Source: Planctomycetota bacterium (GTDB lineage: Bacteria > Planctomycetota > J058). Taken from it: a stretch of 64,000 bases of DNA. The translations under genes and the position numbers were made by a program. Numbering within the stretch: position 1 is the stretch's first letter; the number at the start of each line of letters is the position of its first letter. Shown piece after piece: positions 34,656 through 57,175 of this stretch. The notes below the pieces were generated by a model. That model was not told the DNA's origin. It was given only the letters and a program-made list of their open reading frames with translations, and did not search any database. The DNA lies in the NCBI GenBank assembly GCA_023954375.1, contig JAMLIC010000006.1, positions 18,972 to 82,971 of the forward strand, read 5' to 3'.

Positions 34656-34800
34656 CGCTGTTCAGCTTTTAGCTGTTAGCTGTTAGCTTTTGGCTCTTGG
34701 CCTTTAGCTCTCATTGGCCTCTCCTACTCTCAGGAGGCATGCAGCCGTCAAAGGCCAAGAGCTAACAGCTAACAGCTAAAAGCTAACAGCTAAAAGCTAC
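34656..34800. repeat. low-GC composite palindrome: inverted arrays of ~7 heptamer repeats (AGCTGTT/AGCTTTT...) flanking a ~35-bp spacer that itself contains CTCCT..AGGAG
   Basis: Left array 34664-34710 (agctttt agctgtt agctgtt agctttt ggctctt ggccttt agctctc). Right array 34747-34800 is its approximate reverse complement (gctaaca gctaaca gctaaaa gctaaca gctaaaa gct). GC is about 45% against ~74% around it. Directly abuts the IS91-family element. Confidence 0.85.
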
Positions 34801-35174
34801 AAGCTCCCACAGCACTTCGCATCGCCCTAACCAAGAGGCGATTGAGAGTCGCTCGCGGCGAGCACGGCCTCGCCCGGCCGGGCGCCTGCCCCGCGAGCGG
34901 CGAGCAATCGACGGGTTGAACTATGCCGCTGCGCGGCGGCGGTCGTTCGCGTGAGCCGCCCGGCTATGTGCAGATTGGCGGTCAGCGGGAGGGGCGAGGC
35001 TGTCTTGGCACGGGTCGCGAGCGAGGATCTTCGACGAGTCGGCACGCGACGGGGAGCGGGGCGGCCGACGCAAGTCCTTGGGCGGAGGTGCCGAGGACGT
35101 GGACCGCCGAGACCGGCGGCCCGAGGAAGGACGCGGCGGGGGAGTGGGCGGGGTCGTGGCGAGGCGCTGCGTCG

Positions 35175-40086: not shown

Positions 40087-43000
40087 CTACCCCCGCGCCA
40101 GCTTCTTCCTCAGCTCCAGGTACCCCGGCGACACCGAGAACGCGAGCAGGTCGCGCAGCTCGGGGACGTCGCGGAACGCCTTGACCACGCCCTCGGTCTT
40201 CGTCGGCACGCGGCCGCGCAGCGACACGTTCGTGGCCAGGATCGCCTTCACGGCGGGCAGGGGGCCGCCGGCGGCGAGGAGGCCGGCGCGGCTGGCGGCG
40301 AGGAGGACGCCCTGGCGGAAGCCCTCGAGGTCGAGCTGGTCGCGCCCGCGCCAGAGCGCCTCGTGGACCGGCGCCAGCTCGCGCAGGACCTCGGAGGCCT
40401 TGCCCGCGGCCTTGACCATGGCGCGCACGGCCTTGTCGTCGTCGCCCTTGAACGCGCGCCCCGCCTCGCACGCCTTGAGGAGGCCCAGGAGGAGGCCGCG
40501 CACCTGCTCGAGCGGCAGGGCGCGGAAGACCTCGAGGCCGAGCTTGAGCGGGGCCACGGCGCGGGCGATCACGAAGGCCTTCTCGGGCTCGGAGAGCCCG
40601 GCGAACACCTCGGGGCAGAGGATGAGCGACGGCGTCTTCGAGTGGCCGAGGACCGGCTCGGGGCGGCGCCAGTCGGGCATCCAGTAGATGTCGAGCTGCG
40701 AGATGTCGAGCAGGTCGCACACCCGCTTGACCAGCCGGTGCTCGGGGAAGAGGTCGCCCTCGAGCGTGAGGCGCGCGCTCAGCCAGCCGATCCCGTGGCT
40801 CTTGAGGTCGTCGGGCACCTGCCGGAGGAGGAGCCCGCCGGCCGCGCGGACGAGGTCGCCGAGCGGCCCCTTGCAGGCGTCGGGCAGGAGCCGGGCGGCG
40901 AAGGCCTCGTCCTTCAGCCGCCCGCGCAGCGACGGGAGCTGACCGGCGGCGGCCGCGACCGCCCCCTCCTCCTCGGCCGTCGTCGCGCGCAGGACCGACA
41001 GCGCCTGCAAGGCCTGCCCCAGCGGGTCGGCCCTGCCGCCGGCGCGCCAGCCGTCGGCGAGGGCGCGGTAGGACTCGACCAGCAGCGGGTCCTCGGCCAG
41101 GAGCTCGCGCTGGACGCGCTCGATCCCGGCCACGTCCTTCAGCTCCAGGTAGAGCCGCGACAGCGCCGCCCGCGCGCCCGAGTGCCCGGGCTCGAGCTCG
41201 AGGACCCGCTCGTACTCCGCGGCCGCCTCGGGGGCGAGCCGCTGCTGGGCCAGGAGGTCCGCGCGGCGCAGGCGCAGCGCCGCCTCGTCGCCCTTGCCCC
41301 GCAGGGCGTCGGCCGCGACCCCGAGGGCGCGCGCCTGCGCCTCGAGGTCGCCCTCCGCCTCGAGCAGCCGCAGGAGCGAGTCGAGGGTGTGCCGCTCGCG
41401 CGGGTCGAGCACGAAGGCCTGGTGGAAGCAGCGGCGGGCGAGCTTGCGCTGCTTGAGGCGGTCGCGCACGACGCGCGCCAGGTTGGCGTAGAGCTCCGCG
41501 CGCTTGCGCCGGTCGGTCTCCAGCTCGATCGCCCGCGTCAGCTGCCGGACGGCGGCGCTCCAGCGCTCGGCGCGCCCGTGGATCTCTGCCAGGCGCCGCG
41601 CCGTGCGCGCCCGGTGCTCGCCGTCGATCGCGAGCGTCGCCTGGAGGTGCGCCGCGGCGGCGTCCGCGTCGCCGAGCGCGAGCTCGCAGACGTCGGCGAG
41701 CGCGAGCCGCGCCTGCACCTCGACCTGCGGCGGCGCCCCCGCGAGCGCGTACTCCAGGTGCCGCCGCGCCTCGCGCGGGTCCTTGCTCTCCAGCAGCTTG
41801 CCCAGCTCGAGCTGCGCCTGGGGGCTCCGCGGCGCCACGCGCAGGCCGCTCCGGTAGAGCTCGAGCGCCCGGTCGGTCTCCTTGAGCTTCGACAGCACGC
41901 GCGCGAGCACGAGCTGATGCTCGGCCCGGGCCACCGGCGGCCGCGTCTGGGCCACCAGCTCCTCGTAGACGCCGCGCGCCGCCGCCCAGCCGCCGCCCTG
42001 GACGCACAGCCGGCCCAGGTCCTCGAGCGCCGCGAGGTGGTCGGGGACGAGCTCGAGCGCCTGCCGATAGCTCTGGGCGGCCCCCTCGGCCCGGCCGGCG
42101 CGCTCGAGGAGCTGGCCCCGGGCCCACAGGAGCTCGGCCCCGCGCTGGGGGTCCTTCGGCAGCTCCGGCGAGCTGGCGACCCGCTCGAGGCAGGAGAGCG
42201 CGGCCGCCGCGTCGTCGGCGGCCCACGCCAGCTCGGCGAGCGCCGCGAGCGCCGGGAACAGGGTCGGCGAGCGCTGCAGCGCCTGCTCGTAGCGCTGGCG
42301 CGCGGCGGGGAACTGCCCGAGCGCCTCCCGCCGCACGTCGCCCGCGCGCACGAGCGCCTGCGCGGCGTCGCGCGGGTCCTGCTCGAGGTCGGCGACCTGG
42401 TCCTCGAGGCGCGCCAGCGCGTCCGCCGCCGACTCGTCGGCGCCGAGCGCGCCGGCGCCGCGGGCGTGCAGCGCGCGCGCCAGGCCCTTGAGCGCCGGCA
42501 GGTGCGTCGGCGCCAGGCCGATCGCCTCGCGGTAGCGCGCCTCCGCGCCCGCCACGTCGCCTCGCCGCTCGAGGAGCCCGGCGATCCTGGCGAGCAGGTC
42601 GCCGCGCTTGAACTCGGTCCGCGCGTGGGCGACGGCCTGCTCGTAGGTGCCGAGGAGGTCGTCCCACAGCCCGGCCGCCTCCTGCGCCGCCCCGAGCTGC
42701 GCGAGCGCCGCCTCGTGCGCCGGGTCGGCCTTGAAGGCCTCCGCCAGGGCCTCGAGCGCCTGCGCCTCCTTGCCCTTGCCCGGGCGGCGCCGCAGGACCT
42801 CGACCACCTCGACGAGGGCGTCCGCCCGCTCGGTCCCCTCGCGCAGCCCGGCGAGCCGCTTGAGCGCCCGGACCAGCGCCGCCTCGCCCTTGGCGTCGCG
42901 CGCCGTCCGCCGCAGGACCGTCACCGCGAGCAGCGCCGCCTCGATGCAGCGCGCGTCCTGCCCCAGCGCCTCCTCCGCGGCCTTCAGCGCCTCCTCCGGC

Positions 43001-46000
43001 CGGCCCAGCCGCTCGGCGTTGACCCGCGCCAGCTCGAGGCGCAGCCCGACCGTCTCCGGCCCGCGCGCCCGCGCCAGCCGCCGGTCGATGATCTGCGCCA
43101 GCTCGTCCCACTCGCCCAGGTCGCGCAGGAGGTCGGTGAGCGCCGCCAGCGCCTCCTCGTCCTGCGGCGCGAGCTCGAGCGCCGCGCGGTAGGCGGCCAG
43201 CGCGTCCTGCTTGCGGTAGAGCTTCGACGAGAAGACGGCGCCCAGGCGCTTGTGCAGGCGCACGGCCTCGCCGGCGTCGCCGCACAGCGGCAGGTCGCGC
43301 CGCAGCGTGTCGACGAGCCCCGACCAGTCGCCGCGCGCCTCCTGCACGCGCGCGAGGTCGCCCAGGAGGTTCCGGTCCTTCGGCGCGAGGTGGCTCGCCT
43401 CGCCGAAGAAGCGCGCGGCCGTGAGCAGGTCGCCCAGCTTCTCCTCGGCGAGGTGGCCGGCCCGGCGCAGGCGCGCCTCGCGCTGGCGCGTCCCCTTCAC
43501 CAGCCCGATCTCGAGGCGGAGCGTGTCGAGGAGCTCCGGCCAGCGCTCCGTCTTCTGGTACAGGTCGCGCAGGGCCTCGACCGCCTCCAGGCCGGCGGGG
43601 TTCAGCGTGACCGCGCGCTGGAGCGCCCGGGCCGCCTTCTCGGCGTCATCGAGGCGGTCGCGCAGGACCCGCCCGAGGAGCACGAGCGCGTCGTAGGCCC
43701 GCGGCCCGCGGCGCCCCGCCTGGCCCTCGTAGAAGGTCACCAGCTCGGCCCACCGCGCCTGCCCCGAGAGGAGGCGCTCGAGCTCCGAGGCCACCCGCGC
43801 GTCGTCGGGGACGAGCTGGTGCAGCCGCTGCAGGACCTCGATCGCCTGGTCGTGGCGCCCCAGCTTCTCCTCGAGCAGCGCGGCGCGCTCGAGGAGCAGG
43901 TCGCGCGCGTGCGGGGCGCGGCCGTCGGCCGCGCGCTGCTCGAGCACGTGCGCCAGCTCGGCGTGGCGCCCGGCGAGCCGGTAGGCCGCCTCGAGCGCCT
44001 CGAGCGCCTGCGCCAGGAGCGGGCCGCGCCCGAGCTCGCGGGCCGTGACGAAGGCGTCGATGGCCTCCGACAGCCGGCCGAGCTTCATCTGGTGCCGCCC
44101 GAGCTTGAGCGCGGCCTGGGCCCGCTGCGCGTCCTTGCGCGCCAGCGCCAGGAGCCGCTCGAGGACGACCAGCAGGAGGGCGTCGTCCTCGACCTCGGCG
44201 CACAGCGGCTCGAGCGCCTCCCAGGCCTCCTGGTCGGCCGGGTTCGTCGCCGCCGCCTCGCGGTAGGCGGCGATCGCGCCCGGCGCGTCGGCGAGGCGCA
44301 GGGCGCGGATCTTCGCCGCCCGCCGGAGCATCCAGCCGGCGCGCGCCGGGTCGTCGACGGCCCGGGCCAGGAGCACCGTCGCGTCGGCGAGCTCGCCCCA
44401 CTGGCTGAGCTTCTCGGCCACGCGCGCGTAGGTGCCCAGCGCGTCCGCGTCGGACGGCATGAGCTCGCACGCGGTGCGCGCCAGCCCCAGCGCCCGCTGG
44501 AGCGACGCCTGGCGCGCGTCGCCGGCCGCCTTCTCTGCCAGCGCCTCGCGCAGGCGCGCCGCCTCCAGCGCGAGCAGCCGTCGCCGCTCGGCCTCGGTGA
44601 CGAGCCCCAGCTCCTGCTCGAGCGTCTCGGCCAGCCCCTCGTCGTCGCCGAGCGCGCGCAGGCCCCGGGCCAGCCCGCGGACCGCCTCGAGGTCGTCGGG
44701 CGCGTCGGCCAGGACCTTGCGGAAGCAGGCCACCGCCCGGCGCAGGTCGGAGAGCGCCTCCTCGTACAGGTGCGCCAGCTCGCGGCGCGCCTCGAGGCGG
44801 TCGACCGGCGACGGGGTGTGCTCGGCCAGCGCCTCGAGCGCCTGCGCCAGGGCGCGGAAGTCGAGCAGCTCGCGGGCGACGTCGGCCATCCCGCGCAGGG
44901 CGACGAGCGACACGGCGTCGAGGTGCAGGGCCTCGCCGTAGGCCTTCGCCGCGCCCTCGAGGTCGCGCAGCTCGTGGCGGAGCTGGCCCACGTGGGTCTT
45001 CAGCCACACGAGCCGCCCGCGGTCGACCTTCGCCGTCGCCTCGAGCTCGCAGACGCGGACGACCTCGGCCAGGCGGCCGGCCTGCCGGTGGATCGCCGCG
45101 AGCGCCCGGGCCGCGGGCACGCTCTGCGGGTCGAGCGCGAGCGCCCGCTCGAACGCCCGCGCCGCCTCCTCCTCCTGGCGCAGCTCGCGCTGGAGCAGGT
45201 GCCCCAGCTCGGTCTCCGCCGCGGCGCGGTCGAGCGCGCCGAGGTCCTCGCGGCCGGCCAGCGCGGACAGCGCCTGCGCCAGGTCGGCGTGGCGCCCCGC
45301 CTGGCGGTAGAGGCGGACGAGCGCCCGCAGGACGCGCACGAGGAGCTCGCCCGGCACCCCGGCGCGCCCGGCCCGCTCGCGCGCGGCCTCGAGCCGGGCG
45401 GTCGCCGCATCGGGCGCGCCCTGCTCCTCGTGGACGGCGGCCTCCTCGGCGAGCGCCTGGACCGCCTCGAGCTCGGTCGTGGCCCGGGCCGCCCGCTCGG
45501 CGAGCAGCCGCGCCAGCTCGGGCAGTCGCCGCCCGGCGCGGTAGAGCGCCTCGAGCCCCGCCCGCGCGGCGTCGTCGCCCGCGTCCGCCTCGAGCGCCTC
45601 GAGCCAGCAGCCCTCGGCCGCCGCCGGGTCGCCGAGCGAGCCGCGGTGCAGCTCGGCCATGCGGTGGCGCAGGCGCTGCACCTCGGCCGCGGCGCCCTCC
45701 TTGCCCAGCCGGCGCGCCTCGCCCTCGAGGTAGCCGAGGAGCTCCCGGTGCCGGGCCTCGCGCAGGTAGAGCCCCTCGAGCGCCTGGCGCACGAGCCCGT
45801 CCTGCGGGTCGCGCCGGTGGAGCTCGGCGTAGACCTCGATCGCCCGCCCGGGCGTGTAGACCGGTCCGCTCGCCAGCTCGCCCACGCCCTTGAGGAGGAG
45901 CGCCTCGTCGCCCGGGTCGCGGGCGTGCTTCAGCGCGCGCTCGGTGGCGTCGAGGAGCGCCGACGCGTCGCCGGCCGCCTTGGCCAGGCGCATGAGCAGC

Positions 46001-49000
46001 CCGGCCAGGACGCGCGCCTCGTCGGGCTTGGTCCGCTCGACGAGCTCGAGCGCCGCGCGCACGCACACGGCCGCCGCCGCCGGCCGCCGCAGCTTCGTCT
46101 CCAGGATCCGCGCCTGCTCGAGGAGGAGGCGCGCCCGCTCGCCGTCGTCGGCGGTGACCTCGGCCAGCCGGCCGAGCACCTCCTGGTGCGCCGCGTGCTC
46201 GCCGAGCGCGCCGCGCAGGCGCGCCAGCTCGGCCAGCGTCTCGGGGTCGCGGGGCGCCTGCTGGAGGAGGAGCTCGAGCGTCGCCGCGGCCAGCGCCTGC
46301 TGGCCGAGCCGCTGCTCCTCGACCTGGGCGGCGCGGCGGAGGAACGCCGGCGCCTCCTCGCTCAGCGCCCGGGCCAGGCCGGCGCGGCGGTGCAGCGTGC
46401 GCGCCAGCTCCTGCCAGGCCTCGCGGCGGGCGTAGATCCGCTCGAGCGCGTCGAGCGGCCCCGCCCGCAGCGGGTCGCGGCGCGCCGCGCGCTCGTGGGC
46501 GCGCGCGGCCGCCTCGGGGTCGGCCTCCTCGAGCAGCGCCCCGGCGCGCTCGTAGAGGTCGGACGCGGCCCGGTCGTCCTCCTCGACGACGGCCAGCGAC
46601 TGGAGCACGTCGGCCAGCTTCGCCGCGGCGCCGGCAGCCTCGTACAGCTGCGCCAGCTGCCCGAGCGCCGCCTTGTCCTGCGGGGCCAGCGCGCGGGCGC
46701 GCTCGAGCTCCTCGGTCGCCGCGGCGGCGTCGCCCAGCCGGTCGCGCAGGACGGCCGCGCGCTCGAGGCGCCGCGCCAGCTGCGCGGCCCGCTCGCGGGC
46801 CACGTCGGCCTCCCGCGCGAGCAGGTCGGCCGCCTCCGCCCAGCGCTCCGCCTCGAGCAGGTAGCGGCGCAGGAGCGCCAGCACCGAGGCGTTGTCGGGC
46901 ACCTCCTCCAGCGCCTCGCGCAGGGCCTGGATCGCCTCGTCGCGCCGGCCCAGCCGCTCGTGCGCGTCGGCCACCTTGAGCGCCCACTGGGCGCGCTTGC
47001 GCGGGTCGACCTCCTGGTCGCGCAGGCGCTGGCGCACGCGCACGAGGTCGGTCCAGGCGCCGGCCGCCTGGTGGACGCGCTCGAGGCCGACGAGCGGGCG
47101 CGGGTCGTCGGGCGCCCGGGCGGCGGCCTCGGCGTAAGCCGTCGCCGCCTCGGCGCCGCGGCCGAGGTGCCGCTCGAGGACCTCGCCCAGCTCGACGTAC
47201 AGCGCGGCGAGCGCGCGGGCATCGGCCTCCCCCGATGCTGCGTGGCGCGCCGCCATCGCGGCGGCCTCCGCCCGGAGGACGCGCGCCAGCTCCTCCCACG
47301 CGTGGGCGGCGGCGTAGAGGCGGCGCAGCCCCTCGGTCGCGGCCGGGTCACCCGGGCGCAGGGCCAGGACCTGCTCCCAGTGGCCGCGCGCCTCCTGCGC
47401 GCTCTTCAGCTCGTCCTCGGCCAGGCGCGCCATGCGCTCGTGCAGGGCGGCGCGCTCGTCCGCCGAGGGGGCGTGCGCGGCGAAGCGGCGCAGGAGGTCG
47501 TAGAGCCGCGCCGGCTCGCCGGCCTGCACGAGCAGGCGCTCGAGGGCCTCGAAGGCCGGCCGGCAGCGCGGGTCGCGCGCCAGCGCCGCCTCGAGGAGCG
47601 CCTCGGCGCGCGGGCGCAGGTCGAGCGCGGCGTAGCGCTCGGCGCCGGCGAGGGCCCGGGCGACGAGGCGCTCGCCCGCCTGGGCGCCCTCCTCCTGCGC
47701 GAGGTGGTCGACCTCGCGCGCCAGCGCGTCGGCCAGGCGCCGGTCGTCCTTCACGCGCGCGCACAGCGCCTGGAGCGCCTCGAACGCGGCGGGGTCCGGG
47801 GCGGCGTCGAGCGCCCGCCCCCAGGCCTGGATCGCGTCGTCCGGGCGGCGAAGCCGCTCGTCGAGGGCGCGGGCGGCGCGCTGCAGGAGCGCGGCCTTCT
47901 CGCCCTTCGCGCGGGCGAAGGCGGCGCGCTCCTCGAGCGCCGGGACCAGCTCGTCCCACAGCTCCTCCTGCTCGTAGAGCTCGAGGAGCGGGTCGAGGAG
48001 CTCGGGGGAGGGCTTGCGCCGCAGGGCGGCGCGGTAGCTGTCGATCGCCTGGCGGGGCAGGCGGAGCTGCTCGCGCTCGACGCGCGCCCGCTCGTCGAGG
48101 AGGCGCGCCGCCTTGTGCGGGTCCTTGGTGAGGTCGGCCAGCGCCCCGAGCGCCGGCGCGAGCTCCTGCCACCACTCGCAGCGGCGGCAGAGCGAGGTCA
48201 GCCGCTCGAGGACGTCCGCGCGCCGCGGGGCGGCCTGCGCGGCCGCGCGCAGCTCGTCGGCCGCGGCCGGCAGGTCGCGCAGCTCCTCCTCGAGGAGCTT
48301 CGCCCGCTGCAGGCGCAGCTCGACCGCCTGGGCCTCGTCGGTCACCGCCCGGCGCTTGCGGTCGAGCGCCGCGGCCAGCCGGGGCCAGTCGCGCGCCGCC
48401 TCGTGCAGGGCGGCGAGCCCGTCGAGCGCCTCGAGGGCGTCCGGATCCTCCTCGAGCGCGGCCTCGAAGTGCTGCGCCGCCGCCTCGCCCTCGCCGCGCG
48501 CCGCCTTGCGCCGGGCCAGCTCGATGAGGCTCCGCGCCGCGCTGCGCGTCCGGGGCACGACCTCCCGCACCCGGAGGAGGAGCGCCTCGTAGGCCTGCTC
48601 GCGCTTCAGCTCGAGGAGGAGCTTGGGCAGCTCGCCCAGGGCGACGCACTGCGGGTCGCCGAGCGCGAGCACCTCCTGGTAGAGGTCGGCGGCGCGGGCG
48701 GCGTCGCGCAGGTGGTGATGGACGATCAGCGCCGCTTGCCGCAGGCGCTCCTCGCGCCGGGCGGGCTCCGCCGAGCGGCGCGCCTGGCACTCGTACGCGC
48801 CGGCGAGCGCCGCCCAGTCGCGCGCCTCGAGGTGCAGGTCGCGCAGGCGGCGCCAGGCGTCCTCGTCGTCGGGGGCCAGGCGCAGGACCTCCTCGAGCGC
48901 GGCGACGGCGCCGGCCGGGTCCCCCAGGCGCTCCTGCCGCAGGGCGGCGAGGTGCTTGCCCAGCGCCACGCGATGGTCGGCCGCGGGCGTCGCCTCGAGC

Positions 49001-52000
49001 TGGCGCGCGAGCGTCTCCACCAGCGCCGCCGCGTCGGTCTTCGGGTCGAGCGTGCGGGCGCGGCCGCGGAGCGCCCGCAGGTCGGCGGGCGCGAGCGCCA
49101 GGGCCGCGTCGAAGGCCTCCCGCGCCGCGGGGGGCTGCTTCAGGTGCTCGAGGCGCACCTCGCCCAGGGCCACGAGGCGCTCGACGCGCTGCCGCCGGTC
49201 GGCCTCGAGCTCGCCGAGCCGGGCGAGCGCCGCCGCCAGCTCCGCCCAGGCGCGCTGACCGCGGAGGAGCGGGGCCAGCCCGCGCAGGGCCTCAACGCTG
49301 TCGGGGTCGTGCTTCAGGGCCTGCTCGTAGGTGGCGCGGCCGCCGCCCTTGTCCTTGCGCTGCCCGGCGGCGAGGCGGACCAGCAGCGCGGCCTTCCGCT
49401 TCGGGTCCGGCTCGAGCTCGGCCTCGCGCGCGGTCCAGCGCGCCAGGGCGGCCCGGTCGTTGGCCTCGCGGGCGAGGGTCGCCAGCCAGCGCACGGCCTC
49501 GAGGCGCGCCGGGTCGGCCTCGAGGGCGCGCTCGAACAGCTGGCGGGCGCGCAGGGCGTCGTCCTCGCGCTGGCGCCGCACGCGCCCGGCCTCGACCAGG
49601 AGGTCCGCCCGGCGCGCGCCGTCCTGCTCGAGGCCGCCGGCGGCCTCGAGGTGGTCGGCGAGCGGCGCGCCCAGGCTCATGCGGCGCTCGATGCGGAGCA
49701 GGCAGCGCAGCGCCTCGCGCTCGTCCGGGCCCCAGGCGCTCGGCGCGCCGGCCCCCAGCGCCTCGAGCAGGAGGGCGCGGGCGGCCGGCAGGTCGCCGAG
49801 CTGGAGGCCGCGCAGCTCGGCCTCCTCGCGGAGGACGGCGAGGCGCTCCGGGCGGTCGAGCTCGGCCGGCTCGGCGCCGCGGCGGGCGGCCAGGGCGTCT
49901 GCGAGCGGCCCCGGGCGGTTGGCGGGCCGCAGGGCGCGGACGCGCGCCTCGCGGCACCGCGCCCAGCGCGGGCGCGCCGCCTCGGCCTGGTCGAACGCGG
50001 CCAGCGCATCGTCGAGGCGGCCGAGCCGGGCGAGCATCTCGCCGCGGCGCACGAGCAGCGCGGCCCGCTCGCCCTGCGGCAGGGCCTCCGCCGCCGCGGC
50101 GAGGGCCACCTCGAGGCGGTCGAGCCGCCCGAGGCGCGACAGGAGGGCGAGCAGGGCCTCGTGGCCGGGCGCGTGGGTCGGCGAGGCGGCGATCGCGGCG
50201 CGGTAGGCGTCCTCCGCGCTGGTCGGGTCGCCCGCCTGCTCCTGCACCTGCCCGCGCTCGACCTGGAGGGCGGCGGCGCCGGCGGCGTCGCCCTCGGCCG
50301 CCGCGGCCTCGGCCGCGTCGCCGAGGACGCCGAACGCGCGCGGGAGGGCGTCGGCGCGCACGAGCACGCGCCCGAGGCGCGTGAGCAGGTCGCGCGAGCG
50401 CGGCAGCACCGCCAGCGCCTCGTCGAGGGTCACGGCCGCCTCGACGGGCGCGCCGAGGTCGCGCTCCTGCACCTCGGCCGCCTCGACGAGCCGCTTCACC
50501 CGCACGGCCGGGGGGCCGCCCAGGGCGGCCGCCTGGCGCAGGACGCGCACCAGCTCGTCGTGGCGCCCGAGCCGGCGCTCGACCCCGGCGAGCTGCTCCC
50601 ACGCCGGGTCGTCCGGGTCGCGCAGCCCGGCGGTGAGCGCCTCGAGGGCGCGCCCGGCGCGCGGGAGGTCGTCGAGCTCCTCGTCGCACACGGCCGCGAG
50701 CTCGCGGCGGCAGCCCGCCGGGTCGAGGTCCGGCGCGGGGGGCGCGGGGAGGGCGGCCGCCTCCTCGAGGAGCCGCGCGAGGTCGCCCCAGCGCTGCGTG
50801 CGTCGGTAGAGGCGGCGGAGGCCCTGGAGGGCGGCCGCGTCGGTCGGGTCCTGGGCGAGGACGCGCTCGAGCGCGGCGACCGCCGCCGGCGGCAGGGCCA
50901 GCGGGCCCTCGGCGAGCGTCGCCTGGTGGCGCCACATGTCGGCGCGCAGGGCGGGGTCGGCCGCCTCCGCGGCGACCTGCTCGACCGCGTGCAGGAGCTC
51001 GCGCTGGGCCGGCAGGCCCGCCTCGGCGGCGAGGGCCGCGAGCCGCTCGAACGCCTCGCGGTGGTCGGGGACGGCGCGCAGCGCCCGGTGCCAGGCCGCG
51101 CGCGCGCGGGCGGGGTCCTGCAGCCGCGCCTCGCACAGCCGCGCCAGGTCGGCCGCGAGCGCGCCCGTGCGCGGGCGGTCGCCCTCGACGGCGACGAGCG
51201 CGGCGTCGAGCCGCTGCGCGGCGTCGGCCGCGCGGTCGGCGTCGAGCAGGAGCCGCACGGCCCCCTCCAGCGCGCCCGCGTCGGCCGGCTCCTCGGCGAG
51301 GACCTCCTCGTAGGCGGCCAGCGCGCCGGCCGCGTTGCCGCGCCGCTCCTCGAGGCCGGCCAGCTCGAAGCGGATCCGGCGCTGCGCGGTCGGCTCGGGC
51401 TCGAGGCGCGTCCAGGTCGCCAGCGCCTTCGCCAGGCCGGCGTCGTCGCCGAGGGCGCGGGCCGCGTCGACCCGCAGGCGGACGGCCTCGAGCGCGCCGT
51501 CGCCGTCGGGGACGAGGGCGAGCGCGGCGTCGAGCGCCTCGACCGCGGCCGGGGCCTGGTCGAGGCGCTCGAGGCGCACGGCGCCGAGCTGGCGCAGGGC
51601 GGCGGCCCGCGCCGCGGGGTCGCGCTCGAGCTCCGCCAGGCGCGAGAGCGCGTCGGCCAGCGGCTGCCAGCGCTCCTCGGCGCGCAGGAGCGGGGCGAGG
51701 TCGCGCAGGGCGGGCGTGGGGTCGGCGGGCCCGAGCGCGAGGAGCTGCTCGAGCGCCCGGGCGGCGGCGGGGCCGTCCTTCAGCTGGTCGCGGCGCACGA
51801 GGGCCAGCTCGCGCAGCCAGACCTTCTGGTTGTTGTCGCCGCGGGCGGCGCCGGCCACGCGCCGCTCGAGCACGCGGGCCACCTCGGCCCAGTCGCCCGC
51901 GCGGCGCGCGATCAGCTCGAGGCGCTCGAGCGCCTGGCCGTCCTTCGGGTCGAGCGCCACGACCTGCGCCAGCGCCTCGGCGGCGCGGGCGTCGTCCTTG

Positions 52001-53277
52001 AGCCGGAGCTCGAACACCTCCGCCAGGCGCTTGCCGAGCGCCACGGCGACCCGGCGCTCCTGCTCCGAGCGCCGCGGGTCGACGATCAGCTCGCGCTCCA
52101 GCTCGAGCGCGCGCGCGTGCTCGGGCCAGTCGCCGAGCTTGCGCGTGATCGTCTCCATGAGCTTGAGGGCGCCCACGTGGCGCGGCCGCAGCTCGACCGC
52201 GCGCTTGACGGCTCGCAGGGCCGCGCGCCCCTCGCGCGCCCGGTCGCGCTGCTCGGCCGCGCGCTCCCAGCGCTCGGCCCGCTCGGCGTCCTTGAGCCCG
52301 GGCAGCTCCGCCTCGAGCTCGAGCGCGTGGGCCACCACCCGCGGGTCCTTGAGCTTCTCGCCGAGCCCCATGAGCTGCTTGACGGCGAGCGCGTCCTTCG
52401 GCTCGAGCTCGAGCGCCCGCTGCAGGTGCTTGACCGCCTGCTGCGGCGCGTTGAGCGAGGTGTCGTGGATCGTGGCCAGCCGCTTGAGGAGGCGCACGCG
52501 CTCCTTCGGGTCGTCCTGGGCCACCTCGAGGTGCTGGAAGAGGCCCCGCGCGGCCAGGGCCCACTCACCGCGGCGCTCGAAGAAGCGGGTGATCGTGCCG
52601 AGGATGCGCGCGTCCTTCGGGCCGGCGTCGAGGGCGGCGGCGAACGCCCGCGTCGCCTCCTCGGGGTCCTTGGCGCTCTCGTCGAGGATCGTCCCGGCGA
52701 GGAAGTGGTAGATCGCGGCCTGCTTGTCCTGCGCCGCGCCGGCGAGCGCCCGGTAGGCCTGCACGAGCGCGTCCCAGCGCTGGTGCTTCTTGGCCAGCTG
52801 CTCGAGGTCGTCGAGCGGCAGGCGGCTCTTCGGGTTGGCCTCGATCGCCTGCAGGAGGGCCGCGAGCGCCTCCTGCGGCTTGCCCTCCTCGCGCAGGAGC
52901 CGGCCGAGCTCGTGGTGGAGCTGCCCCAGGCGTCGCGCGTCCTTCGTGACCCCGACCTCGAGCGCCAGGACCCGCCGCGCCCCCGCGCGGTCCTTGCGGT
53001 CGAGGTGCATGGCCTTGAGCGCGCCGAGCGCCGGCAGGTAGGTGCGCCGCACCTCGAACGCGCGCAGGAAGAAGCCCTCGGCCTGCTCGGCGCGCGAGAG
53101 ATGGTCGAGCGAGACCTCGCCCGCGCGGTAGAGCATGCGCTCGCGGAGGCCGTCGTCGTCGACGGCGTCGGCGCGCGCCGCGTAGAGGGAGACCAGGTCG
53201 GCCCACCGCTGGGCGCCCTGGAGCCGCTGCTCCTCATCCTGGAAGAGCTTCGCGCTGCGGACGACGCTCTCGTTCAT
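40087..53277 (-). CDS. giant tetratricopeptide-repeat (TPR) protein, 4396 aa, with a distinct non-repeat C-terminal domain (~270 aa)
   Basis: Single 13.2-kb ORF. ATG at 53277. Continuous TPR-like periodicity (…AxxxYxxALxxxPxxxxAL…) over about 4100 aa. The last ~270 aa (…DIYWMPDWRRPEPVLGHSKTPSLILCPEVF…) are non-repetitive. The equally long antisense ORF 39880..54201 is R/G/E/A low-complexity and judged spurious. Confidence 0.8.
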   Translation of the reverse strand: MNESVVRSAKLFQDEEQRLQGAQRWADLVSLYAARADAVDDDGLRERMLYRAGEVSLDHLSRAEQAEGFFLRAFEVRRTYLPALGALKAMHLDRKDRAGARRVLALEVGVTKDARRLGQLHHELGRLLREEGKPQEALAALLQAIEANPKSRLPLDDLEQLAKKHQRWDALVQAYRALAGAAQDKQAAIYHFLAGTILDESAKDPEEATRAFAAALDAGPKDARILGTITRFFERRGEWALAARGLFQHLEVAQDDPKERVRLLKRLATIHDTSLNAPQQAVKHLQRALELEPKDALAVKQLMGLGEKLKDPRVVAHALELEAELPGLKDAERAERWERAAEQRDRAREGRAALRAVKRAVELRPRHVGALKLMETITRKLGDWPEHARALELERELIVDPRRSEQERRVAVALGKRLAEVFELRLKDDARAAEALAQVVALDPKDGQALERLELIARRAGDWAEVARVLERRVAGAARGDNNQKVWLRELALVRRDQLKDGPAAARALEQLLALGPADPTPALRDLAPLLRAEERWQPLADALSRLAELERDPAARAAALRQLGAVRLERLDQAPAAVEALDAALALVPDGDGALEAVRLRVDAARALGDDAGLAKALATWTRLEPEPTAQRRIRFELAGLEERRGNAAGALAAYEEVLAEEPADAGALEGAVRLLLDADRAADAAQRLDAALVAVEGDRPRTGALAADLARLCEARLQDPARARAAWHRALRAVPDHREAFERLAALAAEAGLPAQRELLHAVEQVAAEAADPALRADMWRHQATLAEGPLALPPAAVAALERVLAQDPTDAAALQGLRRLYRRTQRWGDLARLLEEAAALPAPPAPDLDPAGCRRELAAVCDEELDDLPRAGRALEALTAGLRDPDDPAWEQLAGVERRLGRHDELVRVLRQAAALGGPPAVRVKRLVEAAEVQERDLGAPVEAAVTLDEALAVLPRSRDLLTRLGRVLVRADALPRAFGVLGDAAEAAAAEGDAAGAAALQVERGQVQEQAGDPTSAEDAYRAAIAASPTHAPGHEALLALLSRLGRLDRLEVALAAAAEALPQGERAALLVRRGEMLARLGRLDDALAAFDQAEAARPRWARCREARVRALRPANRPGPLADALAARRGAEPAELDRPERLAVLREEAELRGLQLGDLPAARALLLEALGAGAPSAWGPDEREALRCLLRIERRMSLGAPLADHLEAAGGLEQDGARRADLLVEAGRVRRQREDDALRARQLFERALEADPARLEAVRWLATLAREANDRAALARWTAREAELEPDPKRKAALLVRLAAGQRKDKGGGRATYEQALKHDPDSVEALRGLAPLLRGQRAWAELAAALARLGELEADRRQRVERLVALGEVRLEHLKQPPAAREAFDAALALAPADLRALRGRARTLDPKTDAAALVETLARQLEATPAADHRVALGKHLAALRQERLGDPAGAVAALEEVLRLAPDDEDAWRRLRDLHLEARDWAALAGAYECQARRSAEPARREERLRQAALIVHHHLRDAARAADLYQEVLALGDPQCVALGELPKLLLELKREQAYEALLLRVREVVPRTRSAARSLIELARRKAARGEGEAAAQHFEAALEEDPDALEALDGLAALHEAARDWPRLAAALDRKRRAVTDEAQAVELRLQRAKLLEEELRDLPAAADELRAAAQAAPRRADVLERLTSLCRRCEWWQELAPALGALADLTKDPHKAARLLDERARVEREQLRLPRQAIDSYRAALRRKPSPELLDPLLELYEQEELWDELVPALEERAAFARAKGEKAALLQRAARALDERLRRPDDAIQAWGRALDAAPDPAAFEALQALCARVKDDRRLADALAREVDHLAQEEGAQAGERLVARALAGAERYAALDLRPRAEALLEAALARDPRCRPAFEALERLLVQAGEPARLYDLLRRFAAHAPSADERAALHERMARLAEDELKSAQEARGHWEQVLALRPGDPAATEGLRRLYAAAHAWEELARVLRAEAAAMAARHAASGEADARALAALYVELGEVLERHLGRGAEAATAYAEAAARAPDDPRPLVGLERVHQAAGAWTDLVRVRQRLRDQEVDPRKRAQWALKVADAHERLGRRDEAIQALREALEEVPDNASVLALLRRYLLEAERWAEAADLLAREADVARERAAQLARRLERAAVLRDRLGDAAAATEELERARALAPQDKAALGQLAQLYEAAGAAAKLADVLQSLAVVEEDDRAASDLYERAGALLEEADPEAAARAHERAARRDPLRAGPLDALERIYARREAWQELARTLHRRAGLARALSEEAPAFLRRAAQVEEQRLGQQALAAATLELLLQQAPRDPETLAELARLRGALGEHAAHQEVLGRLAEVTADDGERARLLLEQARILETKLRRPAAAAVCVRAALELVERTKPDEARVLAGLLMRLAKAAGDASALLDATERALKHARDPGDEALLLKGVGELASGPVYTPGRAIEVYAELHRRDPQDGLVRQALEGLYLREARHRELLGYLEGEARRLGKEGAAAEVQRLRHRMAELHRGSLGDPAAAEGCWLEALEADAGDDAARAGLEALYRAGRRLPELARLLAERAARATTELEAVQALAEEAAVHEEQGAPDAATARLEAARERAGRAGVPGELLVRVLRALVRLYRQAGRHADLAQALSALAGREDLGALDRAAAETELGHLLQRELRQEEEAARAFERALALDPQSVPAARALAAIHRQAGRLAEVVRVCELEATAKVDRGRLVWLKTHVGQLRHELRDLEGAAKAYGEALHLDAVSLVALRGMADVARELLDFRALAQALEALAEHTPSPVDRLEARRELAHLYEEALSDLRRAVACFRKVLADAPDDLEAVRGLARGLRALGDDEGLAETLEQELGLVTEAERRRLLALEAARLREALAEKAAGDARQASLQRALGLARTACELMPSDADALGTYARVAEKLSQWGELADATVLLARAVDDPARAGWMLRRAAKIRALRLADAPGAIAAYREAAATNPADQEAWEALEPLCAEVEDDALLLVVLERLLALARKDAQRAQAALKLGRHQMKLGRLSEAIDAFVTARELGRGPLLAQALEALEAAYRLAGRHAELAHVLEQRAADGRAPHARDLLLERAALLEEKLGRHDQAIEVLQRLHQLVPDDARVASELERLLSGQARWAELVTFYEGQAGRRGPRAYDALVLLGRVLRDRLDDAEKAARALQRAVTLNPAGLEAVEALRDLYQKTERWPELLDTLRLEIGLVKGTRQREARLRRAGHLAEEKLGDLLTAARFFGEASHLAPKDRNLLGDLARVQEARGDWSGLVDTLRRDLPLCGDAGEAVRLHKRLGAVFSSKLYRKQDALAAYRAALELAPQDEEALAALTDLLRDLGEWDELAQIIDRRLARARGPETVGLRLELARVNAERLGRPEEALKAAEEALGQDARCIEAALLAVTVLRRTARDAKGEAALVRALKRLAGLREGTERADALVEVVEVLRRRPGKGKEAQALEALAEAFKADPAHEAALAQLGAAQEAAGLWDDLLGTYEQAVAHARTEFKRGDLLARIAGLLERRGDVAGAEARYREAIGLAPTHLPALKGLARALHARGAGALGADESAADALARLEDQVADLEQDPRDAAQALVRAGDVRREALGQFPAARQRYEQALQRSPTLFPALAALAELAWAADDAAAALSCLERVASSPELPKDPQRGAELLWARGQLLERAGRAEGAAQSYRQALELVPDHLAALEDLGRLCVQGGGWAAARGVYEELVAQTRPPVARAEHQLVLARVLSKLKETDRALELYRSGLRVAPRSPQAQLELGKLLESKDPREARRHLEYALAGAPPQVEVQARLALADVCELALGDADAAAAHLQATLAIDGEHRARTARRLAEIHGRAERWSAAVRQLTRAIELETDRRKRAELYANLARVVRDRLKQRKLARRCFHQAFVLDPRERHTLDSLLRLLEAEGDLEAQARALGVAADALRGKGDEAALRLRRADLLAQQRLAPEAAAEYERVLELEPGHSGARAALSRLYLELKDVAGIERVQRELLAEDPLLVESYRALADGWRAGGRADPLGQALQALSVLRATTAEEEGAVAAAAGQLPSLRGRLKDEAFAARLLPDACKGPLGDLVRAAGGLLLRQVPDDLKSHGIGWLSARLTLEGDLFPEHRLVKRVCDLLDISQLDIYWMPDWRRPEPVLGHSKTPSLILCPEVFAGLSEPEKAFVIARAVAPLKLGLEVFRALPLEQVRGLLLGLLKACEAGRAFKGDDDKAVRAMVKAAGKASEVLRELAPVHEALWRGRDQLDLEGFRQGVLLAASRAGLLAAGGPLPAVKAILATNVSLRGRVPTKTEGVVKAFRDVPELRDLLAFSVSPGYLELRKKLARG

Positions 53278-53397
53278 GCCCCGCCTGTCGTTGTCGAGGA
53301 AGCGCCGCTAGTCGTAACTCTTGCGGAGGTAACAGCTAGGAGCGTCGACAGGCTAGCACCGCGGCCGAGGGCGGGCAACGCCGCCCGGACGGGGGGC

Positions 53398-54049: not shown

Positions 54050-54484
54050 TCATCGGGACAGCAGCGCCTCGAGGCGCGGCCGCGGGAGCGCGCCGCTCTC
54101 GACGGCGGCGAGCGCGCCGCCGCGGAACACGGCGAAGGTGGGGACGCCCCGCACGCCGACCTGCGCCGCGTGGCGCGTGTGGCGGTCGGTGTCGACCTTG
54201 ACCACGATCAGCCGACCGGCGTGGGCGCGCGCGAGGTCGGCGACGACGGGCGCGACCATCCGGCAGGGGCCGCACCAGGTGGCGTGGAAGTCGACGAGCA
54301 CCGGCACGGGCGCGCCGCGGATGAGGCGCTCGAGCGCGTCGTCATCGACGTCGACGGGGGTGCCCGCGAGGTCGAGCGCCGCGCGGCAGCGCCCGCACAC
54401 GGGTCGGTCCTCCGCCCGCTCGGCCGCGACGCGGTTGATCCCGCCGCAGGCGGGGCAGCGGTAGACCAGCGACGCCGTCGTCAT
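54050..54484 (-). CDS. trxC: thioredoxin with N-terminal zinc-finger extension (thioredoxin-2 type)
   Basis: N-terminal CPACG…CGRC zinc ribbon, then a thioredoxin fold with WCGPC active site. Confidence 0.85.
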   Translation of the reverse strand: MTTASLVYRCPACGGINRVAAERAEDRPVCGRCRAALDLAGTPVDVDDDALERLIRGAPVPVLVDFHATWCGPCRMVAPVVADLARAHAGRLIVVKVDTDRHTRHAAQVGVRGVPTFAVFRGGALAAVESGALPRPRLEALLSR

Positions 54485-54763
54485 GTCCGTGCTCTCGGCT
54501 CCGCGAGGTCCCCCGGTCGGGCCGCCGGGGCGAGCGGGAGGGCCGCGGACGCGGACCCACGCCCATCCACGCGCACCCCCATCGTCGCGCCGGCACGCGC
54601 CCTGTCGAGGTCCTCTCGGCGTGAGACGGATGAGCCGATCAGGATCCGGCGATACGTCTCACGCCTGCATCCGGGGGGAGAAGCCTCCAAGGAGCTCGCG
54701 CCACGCAATTTCAAGAGCTTGAGTCGTCCGCGATTCGGTCCGAGGTGTGCTTCGTCGCAGCAC

Positions 54764-55786
54764 GTGACTCGATCCCCCCTCCTGGGCGCGCTGCTCGGCC
54801 TCCTCCTCGTCGCCTCCGGCGCCCGGGCGGAGGGCGTCCGCTTCCGGATCGATGGCGCGGGCCCGGAGGGCCCTTGTGACGGGACGGCGCTCCTGGCTGC
54901 CGAGCCGGGCGGGGCGCTCGTCGTGACGCTGAAGACGGTGGGCCACGACGGCGCGGAGCGCCGCGGGCGCGCCGAGGTCGCCCGCGCCGGCGGGCTCCTG
55001 TCGTTCACCCTCCGGGCCGCGCGGGGCGTCGTCCTCGAGCCTGCGCTGTCTGCGCGCTGCCGCCGCCTCGAGTCCGGCGCGCTCGAGGTCGTCTACCGCG
55101 ACGAGCGCGGCGCGGTGGTCCGGCGCGAGACCTGGACCCGCGACGAGGAGGTCACGATCCCGGTGCTCGTGGTCGCCCTCACCGGCGAGCCGTTCCGCTT
55201 CCCCGACGTCACGCCCGAGGAGGCCCTGCAGGCACAGGCGAGCGCGCTGGCGCAGCTCAACCGCGTCTACGCGCCCGGCCGCCTGCGCTTCGTGGCGATC
55301 TCGGCGCCTGAGCTCATCGCCGGCGCGCCGTTCGACACGGACGGCGACGGCCGCCTCTCGCGCGACGAGGGGGCGGCCCTGCGGGCCGACCTCGAGGCGC
55401 GCGAGCTGAAGCGCCCCGGGCGGGTGGTGCTCGTGCTGACCGCGGCCCCGATCATCGGGCGCGGCTGCCGCGGCTGGACGCTGGGCGACGCCCGCGCCAC
55501 CCCGCACTCGCTCGGCGACGTGAACGACAACTTCTCGCTCGTGAGCCTGCGCTTCGTCGCCAACGGCCGCACCGTCCCCCACGAGGTCGGCCACCAGCTC
55601 GGCCTCGACGACCTGACCCCGCACAACCGCGACCTGCTCGACCGCCGCGACCGCGCCGACCATCTGATGGAGAGCGGCGGCGGGGGCGCGTTCCTCGACC
55701 CCGCGCTCATGCGCGTCCTGCGCCGGACGGTGCGCTGGCCCGACCACGGGCTCGAGGGGCGGCGGCCGCTCGAGGGGAAGAAGTAG
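54764..55786 (+). CDS. secreted putative zinc metalloprotease (HExxH) with DxDxDG calcium-binding-like loop
   Basis: GTG at 54764. Signal peptide LLGALLGLLLVASGARAEG. HEVGHQLGLDD zincin motif near the C-terminus. DTDGDGRLSRDE EF-hand-like loop. The upstream part of the 538-aa six-frame ORF overlaps trxC antisense and is not coding. Confidence 0.6.
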   Translation: MTRSPLLGALLGLLLVASGARAEGVRFRIDGAGPEGPCDGTALLAAEPGGALVVTLKTVGHDGAERRGRAEVARAGGLLSFTLRAARGVVLEPALSARCRRLESGALEVVYRDERGAVVRRETWTRDEEVTIPVLVVALTGEPFRFPDVTPEEALQAQASALAQLNRVYAPGRLRFVAISAPELIAGAPFDTDGDGRLSRDEGAALRADLEARELKRPGRVVLVLTAAPIIGRGCRGWTLGDARATPHSLGDVNDNFSLVSLRFVANGRTVPHEVGHQLGLDDLTPHNRDLLDRRDRADHLMESGGGGAFLDPALMRVLRRTVRWPDHGLEGRRPLEGKK

Positions 55787-55805
55787 GCGCTCTCAGCCAT
55801 CGATT

Positions 55806-55896
55806 GGACACGGAGGCAACGAAGGACCACGGAGGCCACGGAGGGGAGTAAGGACAGCCTCCGTGACCTCCGTGGTCCTTCGTCGCCTCCGTGTCC
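55806..55896. repeat. long near-perfect palindrome (~39-bp arms, 2 mismatches, 13-nt loop) built from CACGGAGG units; putative bidirectional terminator / REP-like element
   Basis: Arms 55806-55844 and 55858-55896. Lies in the 138-bp gap between the convergent metalloprotease and receiver-kinase genes. Shares the CCACGGAGG(A/C)CACGGAGG core with the hairpin at 30547-30593. Confidence 0.8.
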
Positions 55897-55924
55897 CATG
55901 TGAGCCCACACGGTCGGCCCTCGA

Positions 55925-57175
55925 TCACATCCCCAGCCGCAGCATCGCCTCCAGCTTCGACCCGAGGACGATCGGGTCCTGCGGGCGGCGGGCGGGTTCG
56001 GGGTCGAGCAGATCCGCGACGAGCCCCACCAGCTCCGGCGGGCAGTCGCGGCGGCGCTCGTCGACCCGCGGCGCGATCCAGTCGTTCAGGATGTTGTTGA
56101 AGATCTCGGTGGGGTTGCGGCCGGGCGTCGGGCGCTCGTCGGTGAGCAGCTCGTAGAGGGTCGCGCCGAGCGAGTAGAGGTCGCTCACCACGTCGGGCAC
56201 CTGCCCCTTCACCACCTCGGGGGCCATGTACTCGGCGGTGCCGAGGATCTCGCTCGTCGAGGTGAGCGCCTCCTCGGTGCGCGACTTCGCCAGGCCGAAG
56301 TCGATGAGCACCGCCCGGCGGTCGTCGCCGATCACGACGTTGCCGGGCTTGATGTCGCGGTGGACGAGCCCCTTCTCCAGCAGGGCGTCGATCGCCCGGC
56401 ACAGGTCGGCCCCGACCTGCAGGACGTCGGGCACACGCAGGGGGCCCTGGTCGCGGAGGAGCTGCAGGGCGGTGCGGCCGGGGACGAGCTCCATGCACAG
56501 GAAGTAGCGGCCGACGGAGAAGCCGGCGTCGACGATGCGCACCACGTGCGGGCACTCGACCCACGTGAGGGTGGCGATCTCGCGGAAGTAGCGGGCGAGC
56601 TGCACGCGGTCCTCGGCGAGCTCGACCGAGAGGAGCTTCAGGGCGACGCTCCGCGCCTCGCCGTCCTTCCTCGCCTCGTAGACGGCGCCCATGCCGCCCT
56701 CGCCGATGCGGCGCAGGAGGGTGTAGGCGTCGAAGCGCGCCGGGAAGCGGTCGACCCCGCCCCCGCCCCCGACAAGCGGGAGGGCCCCCTTCGCGCCTCC
56801 GGACGTGGGCCGCTCGTGCAGGAGCTGGGCCACCTTCGCCTGGAGGACGCTCGGCCGGAACGGCTTGACCAGGTACTCGTTCGCGCCGGCCTCGTAGCCG
56901 CGGAGGATGTCGTCCTCCTCGTCGAGCACGGAGCAGAGGATCAGCGGCAGCTCGGCCTTGTCGAAGCGCGCGCGGAGGCCGCGGCACAGCTCGATCCCGT
57001 CGAGCCGCGGCATCTTGACGTCGGAGATCACCAGGTCGAACCCGCCCCGGGTGACCACCTCGAGCGCCTCGGCGCCGTTGGAGAAGGCCACCACCTCGTG
57101 GCCACGGCGGCCGAGGGCAAGGGTGACCAGCTGGCGGAGATGCGGATCGTCCTCGGCGACGGCGATGCGCGGCAC
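55925..57175 (-). CDS. response-regulator receiver domain fused to a Ser/Thr protein kinase
   Basis: GTG 57175 (VPRIAVAEDDPHL…). Receiver with phospho-acceptor context DLVISDVKMPRLDG and LVKPF. Then kinase motifs (GEGGMGAVY, ALK, HRDIKPGNVVI, DFGLA, APE). The longer ORF reaching 57292 is possible. Confidence 0.8.
   Translation of the reverse strand: MPRIAVAEDDPHLRQLVTLALGRRGHEVVAFSNGAEALEVVTRGGFDLVISDVKMPRLDGIELCRGLRARFDKAELPLILCSVLDEEDDILRGYEAGANEYLVKPFRPSVLQAKVAQLLHERPTSGGAKGALPLVGGGGGVDRFPARFDAYTLLRRIGEGGMGAVYEARKDGEARSVALKLLSVELAEDRVQLARYFREIATLTWVECPHVVRIVDAGFSVGRYFLCMELVPGRTALQLLRDQGPLRVPDVLQVGADLCRAIDALLEKGLVHRDIKPGNVVIGDDRRAVLIDFGLAKSRTEEALTSTSEILGTAEYMAPEVVKGQVPDVVSDLYSLGATLYELLTDERPTPGRNPTEIFNNILNDWIAPRVDERRRDCPPELVGLVADLLDPEPARRPQDPIVLGSKLEAMLRLGM

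Follow-up and report, generated by a model that had tools for sequence, protein, structure and literature searches.

Canonical terminators usually have a stem of 5-14 bp, and hairpins that lack a U-tract are found in high-GC bacteria, of which the mycobacterial TRIT motif is an example. REP, BIME and REPIN elements are multi-copy, imperfect intergenic palindromes situated after gene ends or between convergent genes, where they are reported to attenuate transcription and protect the upstream mRNA (in part after Cozzuto et al. 2008). It has been demonstrated that one heptamer, TAACTGA, is repeated in distant phyla with 'no mechanism evident' (MacGregor 2015, PMC4679880), and inverted pairs of uptake sequences in Neisseria and Pasteurellaceae have been described as forming terminator-like hairpins after genes (Kingsford et al. 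2007, as summarized in a paper that cites it).

The palindrome at 55806-55896 of the window, i.e. the whole 64-kb stretch of DNA analysed here (76.7% GC), is regarded with high confidence as a diverged member of a family of dispersed palindromes made of short tandem repeats, one that is kin in kind to REP/BIME and STRR. The first-pass annotation missed the main point, namely that this palindrome belongs to a repeat family that crosses phyla and whose unit core is CACRGAG. Like REP, BIME and REPIN elements, it is a multi-copy palindrome enriched after gene ends, with unconserved flanks and fast turnover between relatives. The arms of the CACRGAG family are made of tandem short units, whereas those of REP are not; its head, as read from 234 half-elements, is T(T/C)(C/A)AC instead of the GT[AG]G of REP; and while each REP family is confined to a genus and associated with RAYT transposases, the CACRGAG unit occurs in about nine phyla with no partner gene seen among 96 neighbour genes.

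The STRR heptamers of heterocystous cyanobacteria are likewise intergenic arrays of very short tandem units, although the STRR unit has 7 nt and that of the CACRGAG family 8+1 nt; units of 7 nt are present in another element of the window (34661-34805). CACRGAG arrays are inverted pairs after gene ends, whereas the TAACTGA arrays run in one direction and immediately precede start codons (PMC4679880). Uptake-sequence terminators, as far as the citing paper describes them, share with this family a short genome-wide oligonucleotide placed as inverted pairs after genes, but they have one unit per arm and are species-specific and tied to competence, as opposed to 2-5 units per arm, a cross-phylum distribution and no known function in uptake. 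With canonical terminators and U-tract-less hairpins the family has in common a GC-rich hairpin shortly after the stop, and copy 1 in the window even has a U-rich tail; copy 2, the palindrome at 55806-55896, differs from the canonical type in its stem of 39-42 bp with a 13-nt loop and no U-tract. A hairpin between convergent genes is ordinary in itself, and what is less ordinary is a 7-nt core found in about nine phyla, the replacement of resident terminators, and the lack of a visible vehicle or reader.

Anatomy and setting of the hairpins in the window

The locus of copy 2 comprises the following features:

54170-55786, + strand: upstream convergent gene, secreted-looking protein with HEVGHQLGLDD (HExxHxxGxxD), TAG stop at 55784-55786
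55806-55844: 5' arm of copy 2, GGA-CACGGAGG-C-AACGAAGG-AC-CACGGAGG-C-CACGGAGG, the palindrome extending to 55803
55845-55857: loop of copy 2, 13 nt, GGAGTAAGGACAG
55858-55896: 3' arm of copy 2, CCTCCGTG-A-CCTCCGTG-GT-CCTTCGTC-G-CCTCCGTG-TCC, the palindrome extending to 55899
55925-57175, - strand: convergent gene, receiver and Ser/Thr protein kinase of 416 aa, stop at 55925-55927

The first-pass annotation had quoted the sequence of 55806-55896 correctly, and its description of a palindrome with arms of about 39 bp and two mismatches is confirmed, as is its placement between convergent genes, labelled there metalloprotease and receiver-kinase, the stops of which lie 19 nt (HEVGH gene) and 28 nt (receiver-kinase gene) from the hairpin. 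The core arms (55806-55844 / 55858-55896) are 39 nt long with two mismatches, and a repeat search gave arms of 42 nt (55803-55844 / 55858-55899) that are 93% complementary. Both mismatches are A/C on the + strand and hence G.U on the - strand. In both arms the CACGGAGG unit is present three times in exact form and once as a variant (AACGAAGG / GACGAAGG), with a spacing of 9-10 nt, so that the arms are tandem 9-nt units of the form CACGGAGG+N, and the repeat search detected direct repeats at 9- and 19-nt spacing within each arm.

The CACGGAGG 8-mer occurs 11 times in the 64-kb window, against 5.3 expected, and ten of these occurrences are inside the two hairpins. The two-unit pattern was counted 8 times against 0.61 expected, all within the two hairpins, and none of 100 shuffles reached 8; a chance origin of the unit-built palindrome is therefore excluded. 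In a scan of the 64 kb, the copy 2 hairpin and a palindrome of different units at 34.66-34.81 kb were by far the strongest intergenic inverted repeats. The RNA folding that had been proposed as a check bears out the structure: for a 126-nt stretch around copy 2 the predicted energies are -83.7 kcal/mol (+ strand; z -10.05) and -94.9 kcal/mol (- strand; z -11.3), and as a single-strand DNA hairpin copy 2 reaches -50.3 kcal/mol (z -9.9), with no shuffle as stable in any of the three cases.

A stable GC-rich hairpin shortly after the stop is a trait that copy 2 shares with canonical terminators. No U-tract follows its stem, the T fraction being only 0.125 and 0.19 in the following 16 nt, and a terminator scan made no call there. 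Given the missing U-tract and the 39-42-bp stem, copy 2 is not a canonical intrinsic terminator. The REP-type GT[AG]G foot is absent from copy 2, and so is the head motif T(T/C)(C/A)AC, the element starting ...cgattGGA-CACGG with flanks that are neither A- nor T-rich. In view of the absent head and A/T flanks, copy 2 looks like a diverged member of the CACRGAG-unit family.

A Pfam search of the + strand HEVGH protein gave no match, and the metalloprotease label is plausible for this metzincin-like protein. A 346-aa orthologue (69% identity) aligns from residue 218, which probably puts the true start close to 54.8 kb. The - strand protein matches Response_reg and Pkinase in Pfam and is 100% identical to 'MAG: protein kinase [Planctomycetes bacterium]'; a cluster of fuzzy units within the kinase coding region (56899-56971) is due to chance. 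Most gene ends of the window are without such a hairpin. The window also has a giant - strand ORF (40087-53307, about 4,400 aa) with a strong GC3 signal of 0.99, syntenic with a very large gene in two relatives (L122 and L123).

The number in the name 'copy 2' was given rightly, as a first copy lies behind a gene for a protein like the major vault protein (MVP):

30527-30542, - strand: U-rich tail after copy 1, ...GGUGAAUCUUCUUGUACUUACG
30543-30606, - strand: copy 1, CCAAC-(CACGGAGG)x3, loop, (CCTCCGTG)x2, then GTGAA
30621-33380, - strand: MVP-like gene, its stop 14 nt upstream of copy 1

Copy 1 has the typical head motif and the A-rich and T-rich outer flanks, with unequal unit numbers of 3 vs 2; on the - strand it is followed by UGAAUCUUCUUGUACUU, and the tail contains UGAAUCUUCUUGUACU. 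The MVP-like protein (919 aa) matches MVP_shoulder (E = 1e-19) and Vault_3 in Pfam, and hundreds of homologues with about 60% identity are present in Polyangia/Myxococcota and Planctomycetes MAGs. Upstream of this gene, 50-100 nt from its start, the decamer CGCCCGGACC forms a perfect 5.1-copy tandem repeat (33430-33480).

The palindrome of different units has a mobile-element gene for a neighbour:

34661-34805: heptamer palindrome, arms of 42-48 nt and centre of 44 nt, AGCTGTT / AGCTTTT vs AGCTAAC / AGCTAAA
35175-36395, - strand: IS91-family transposase gene (Y2_Tnp, E = 3e-53)

This heptamer palindrome lies just past an ORF stop at 34634 and about 370 nt from the transposase gene, and may be either part of an IS91-family element or an independent STRR-like hairpin.

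A family of CACRGAG-unit hairpins across phyla

The refuting condition attached to the original description was an element unique in its genome, and copy 2 is not unique: the 64 kb contain two such hairpins, and at least 115 further loci have them. Species-representative genomes were scanned for two units, a 3-33-nt gap and one complementary unit, and unit-built hairpins of the CACRGAG type were found at at least 115 genome loci in about nine phyla. With phyla assigned by record title, the matches listed include about 40 loci in Acidobacteriota, about 34 in Gemmatimonadota, about 20 in Proteobacteria, five each in Planctomycetota, Myxococcota/'Deltaproteobacteria' and Chloroflexota, three in Treponema (Spirochaetota), two in Verrucomicrobiota and one in an archaeal Thermoplasmatota bin. 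All records listed are MAGs, their host or locus GC ranges from about 40 to 76%, and several carry 3-7 copies. Longimicrobium, Vicinamibacteria, Pyrinomonadaceae, Asaia and Telmatospirillum are among the lineages with matches. The absence of Actinobacteria, Bacteroidota, Cyanobacteria and Firmicutes among the matches listed is only suggestive.

An alignment of 234 half-elements revealed a polar module consisting of the head T(T/C)(C/A)AC, tandem units and A-rich DNA 8-14 nt outside; two such halves placed tail-to-tail give a long hairpin with 2-5 tandem units per arm. Copy 2 conforms to this plan in having at least two tandem CACRGAG+NN units per arm, the purine arm first and complementary arms. 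An HMM built from 200 foreign half-elements matched only the two hairpins when run against the window, with E = 7e-7 and 1.7e-6 for the arms of copy 1 and E = 1.6e-3 and 1.3e-2 for those of copy 2. In 232 variant units, positions 1, 3, 5 and 7 are conserved at 96-97% and positions 4 and 8 are kept in 53-56%, which defines the unit as a CACRGAG core plus two variable bases. The core is retained across hosts of 40-76% GC, while the spacers differ by lineage.

The pattern of unit variation bears on the idea that the arrays are binding sites of a conserved RNA-binding factor (RsmE/CsrA-like, or the 30S subunit via GGAGG, the Shine-Dalgarno sequence), which would control hairpin formation by binding the purine arm as it is transcribed. 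We consider this highly improbable. The unit ACACGGAGGA does fit the RsmE/CsrA consensus (A/U)CANGGANG(U/A), as quoted in PMC6849547, at every specified position, a second hairpin family in one carrier locus (L074) has CAGGATGA units like those of CsrB, and Actinobacteria, Bacteroidota and Cyanobacteria are missing from the at least 115 loci listed. This striking match to the consensus is contradicted by the way the units vary: only 56% of the 232 variant units retain the first G of GGA, at position 4, which is one of the two most variable positions, CACAGAGG is common, and the consensus 'N' positions 3 and 7 are those conserved at 96-97%, the opposite of a CsrA constraint. Moreover, the GGA motifs are base-paired in the stem and not exposed in loops, and many carriers are alpha- or betaproteobacteria, in which CsrA has been reported to be rare (PMC12247646). 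A CsrA sponge or CsrA-controlled hairpin was rejected on the strength of the variation pattern.

Arms are frequently unequal in unit number, for example 3 vs at least 6 at locus L080, and an inverse, head-to-head arrangement, with the CCTCCGTG arm first and a GGTGAA...TTCACC centre, occurs in at least 120 metagenome contigs. A strict polarity with the purine arm always first was rejected, since the inverse arrangement is also common. Inverse hairpins are less tied to gene 3' ends and often lie upstream of unrelated genes.

Some composite forms were also observed. Peat and bog metagenome contigs from several samples (L125, L127, L136-L138, L145, L150, L152, L162, L168 and L183) share a conserved element of ~170 nt in which an inverse CACGGAGG hairpin surrounds a direct hairpin ...CCTCCGTGTCCTCCGTGGCCAGAAGAGCTTCAACACGGAGGTCACTGAGA...TCTCAGTG...GTGTTGAG...GGAGGCTCGGAGAACACGGAG...; this composite, which has no Rfam match, may represent either a structured RNA or some longer repeat. 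In L013 and L095 (Planctomycetaceae MAG), GCGCAAAGG-like units make up an outer inverted repeat that encloses CACGGAGG hairpins.

When the carrier loci were scanned for tandem-unit hairpins in general, 25 more came to light, with arms composed of 7-9-nt units that have other sequences and belong to unit families such as AGTGCGTG, ATCGGGTA, AATGGTG, GTTGGTC, GGATGAACA and CGCAGAG+NN. The GTTGGTC unit resembles STRR2. An Acidobacteriota MAG (L079, 391-5113) is unusually dense, with about four CGCAGAG+NN hairpins and one CACGGAGG hairpin in 8 kb. In the closest relative found, with an MVP-like protein 90% identical (L245, 15189-15416), another tandem-unit inverted repeat, with arms CACAACAGAGGAGCAGAGGGAGCAGAG and a centre of 174 nt, lies between two convergent genes.

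At the gathering score, Rfam 15 had no match in the window or in 16 carrier loci except one tRNA, and an E-value search of 55700-56000 returned only sub-threshold miRNA-precursor matches, i.e. generic long hairpins. No description of CACRGAG-unit hairpins or unit strings was found in the open-access literature; a match to the unit string in the DIVE paper is an unrelated anchor sequence. An artefact of SMRTbell or other adapters was discarded, as the hairpins are inside gene-flanked contigs from several assemblers.

Gene ends and orthologous slots

Among the matches listed, 98 hairpins were classified with crude, GC3-based gene calls: convergent genes flank 29 of them and divergent genes 6, another 47 have a gene 3' end on one side, and 16 could not be assigned. 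Thus 76 of the 98 face at least one gene 3' end, and the excess of convergent over divergent sites (29 vs 6) is significant (p = 1.2e-4). At the loci listed, the median distance from stop to hairpin is 27 nt, and 81% of distances are within 60 nt. Family-wide, the 5' flanks of the hairpins are A-rich, and T is enriched on either side in the 16 nt that follow the stem (0.31 against a background of 0.166; A 0.175), a strong T-run being present in only 15% of the flanks. The neighbours are diverse housekeeping genes: no recurrent gene family or transposase was found among 96 upstream genes, which match 118 Pfam families, and the genes beside inverse hairpins are mutually unrelated, so that no partner or cargo gene emerged.

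Two slots could be followed in relatives. In that of copy 1, three relatives with MVP-like proteins 90, 83 and 83% identical have an ordinary 12-bp GC hairpin with a U-rich tail, and the sequence further downstream is alignable, so the CACGGAGG hairpin occupies the exact terminator position in the window. Ordinary hairpins with U-rich tails in exactly this slot indicate that the repeat-built hairpin is positionally interchangeable with conventional terminators.

The slot of copy 2 is set in a syntenic array of the kinase, the convergent HEVGH gene, a thioredoxin, an Rce1-like protein and the giant protein, with a different downstream neighbour gene in L119. Relatives with 86% identical kinases have a decayed hairpin of the CACGGAGG type, an 84% relative has a CAGTTNT-heptamer hairpin around a plain GC hairpin, and a 63% relative (L124) has a plain 17-bp GC hairpin and hexamer arrays; in two 82% relatives (L122 and L123) the convergent stops are 10 nt apart and there is no hairpin. 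The hexamer arrays of L124 (5254-5542) consist of purine-rich GAAGAGGG runs and perfect (GGGCAA)x6 and (CGGGAA)x6 before the plain GC hairpin. As judged from these relatives, a hairpin in the copy 2 slot is usual, its sequence turns over fast, and it is dispensable, since L122 and L123 do without it.

Such turnover is what would be expected if the hairpins were selfish or neutral repeat DNA without host function, spread by slippage, template switching or other copying and tolerated after gene ends, an explanation that we regard as possible though on balance unlikely. It would accommodate orthologous sites at which the element is present, replaced by other units or absent, the unequal unit numbers of the arms (3 vs 2 in copy 1; 3 vs at least 6 in L080), the many other unit families of the same architecture in the same genomes, and a ratio of 112 uncompensated to 19 compensated unit variants, even if the compensated ones, most of them CACAGAGG/CCTCTGTG, are far above the expectation for independent decay. 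Against it, no transposase or other recurrent neighbour accompanies the hairpins, and flanking direct repeats are no commoner than in shuffled left/right pairings, an absence of target-site duplication on which a MITE was rejected as well. Within a genome, flank conservation ends at about 10-20 nt, Longimicrobium copies sharing a longer A-rich flank. Phage carriage is nearly absent, with 3 and 0 matches in 2.9 million viral contigs. Pure drift likewise fails to explain why hosts of 40-76% GC share the CACRGAG core when their spacers differ by lineage. Copy 1, with its U-rich tail, also occupies precisely the slot of a terminator. The dispensability in L122 and L123, the lack of an RNA mismatch bias and the existence of the inverse arrangement nevertheless keep this rival substantial, and leave a role at the DNA level open.

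A proposed role at transcript ends, and other possible roles

We somewhat favour the reading that copy 2 is a REP/STRR-like dispersed repeat serving as a bidirectional transcript-end hairpin, that is, as a barrier and as 3'-end protection. Its function as such is proposed with moderate confidence from its position, the gene-end bias, the terminator-like flanks of the family and the slot equivalence of copy 1. Either convergent transcript would fold the same 39-42-bp hairpin 19 or 28 nt past its own stop; in this way transcription would be impeded from running on into the gene opposite, 3'-5' exonucleases would be stopped, and the base of the hairpin would become the end of both mRNAs. As copy 2 has no U-tract, polymerase release would probably need Rho or another factor and not proceed by classical intrinsic termination, and the stem of 39-42 bp may be an RNase III substrate or cleavage site. 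The arms may have arisen and changed by unit slippage, with copies that turn over quickly between related genomes.

Of the roles put forward in the first-pass annotation, that of a bidirectional terminator stands as regards the transcript-end position (19 and 28 nt from the stops, a family median of 27 nt, 29 convergent vs 6 divergent sites, and the slot of copy 1) and falls as regards canonical intrinsic termination, copy 2 being without a U-tract. A role in RNase action or mRNA stability, as barrier or 3'-end protection, is inferred, whereas a recombination hot spot is supported no further than by the fast turnover of copies and the slippage in unit number, a weak sense of the term.

The mismatches in the arms bear no signature of selection on RNA. 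On the sense strand of the upstream gene, G.U pairs are no more frequent than A.C pairs (26 vs 33), and given this family-wide absence of a G.U bias the two - strand G.U mismatches of copy 2 are probably a coincidence. T-richness is also equal on the 'needed' and 'unneeded' sides of the hairpins (0.297 vs 0.318), so that neither the mismatch pattern nor T-richness by side reveals RNA-level selection. Spacer bases mismatch at a rate of 27% compared with about 6% at unit positions, meaning that the unit sequence is kept more strictly than pairing requires. The missing wobble bias was counted above for selfish or neutral DNA, and it would equally suit an element that acts as DNA, either a cruciform or an array for a DNA-binding protein, which might manage supercoils between convergent genes or be a hot spot of recombination or rearrangement. 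Gyrase and IHF bind the BIMEs of E. coli. The stable single-strand DNA hairpin (-50.3 kcal/mol, z -9.9), flanks that are symmetric regardless of gene orientation, unit conservation beyond pairing needs and the different downstream neighbour gene in L119 agree with a DNA-level element. We still hold it to be improbable: we know of no candidate binding protein, no loop site is conserved across lineages, ordinary RNA terminator hairpins take the place of copy 1 in relatives, and the short distances to stop codons fit a role at the transcript level.

Several other candidates were considered by eye and dropped, among them a sigma-54 promoter, an IHF site in the loop and an elemental pause motif. 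An integron attC site was discarded because R''/R' cores and an integrase are lacking and the context is convergent, and a retron because no reverse transcriptase is nearby.

A wider proposal, which we put forward tentatively and with considerable doubt, is that the direct and inverse TTCAC-(CACRGAG+NN)n arrays are undescribed, portable hairpin modules that cross phyla and replace resident terminators, their core being kept either by a conserved reader or by hairpin-templated copying that requires no transposase and leaves no duplication. One 7-nt core occurs in about nine phyla with no visible vehicle, since neither a transposase nor target-site duplication was found and carriage by phages is nearly absent. 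The puzzle is the same as for the cyanobacterial STRR and the TAACTGA repeats: by what means such short tandem units originate, are maintained and spread. The CACRGAG family is a tractable case for this question, because its orthologous sites display gain, loss and replacement. Assembly breaks and variation in unit number are also likely to occur at palindromes of this type. If copy 2 and its kin do act as two-way transcript ends, they would provide compact bidirectional insulator parts usable across hosts of 40-77% GC, and such hairpins would mark the 3' ends of genes in poorly studied, high-GC uncultured phyla in which U-tract terminators are scarce.
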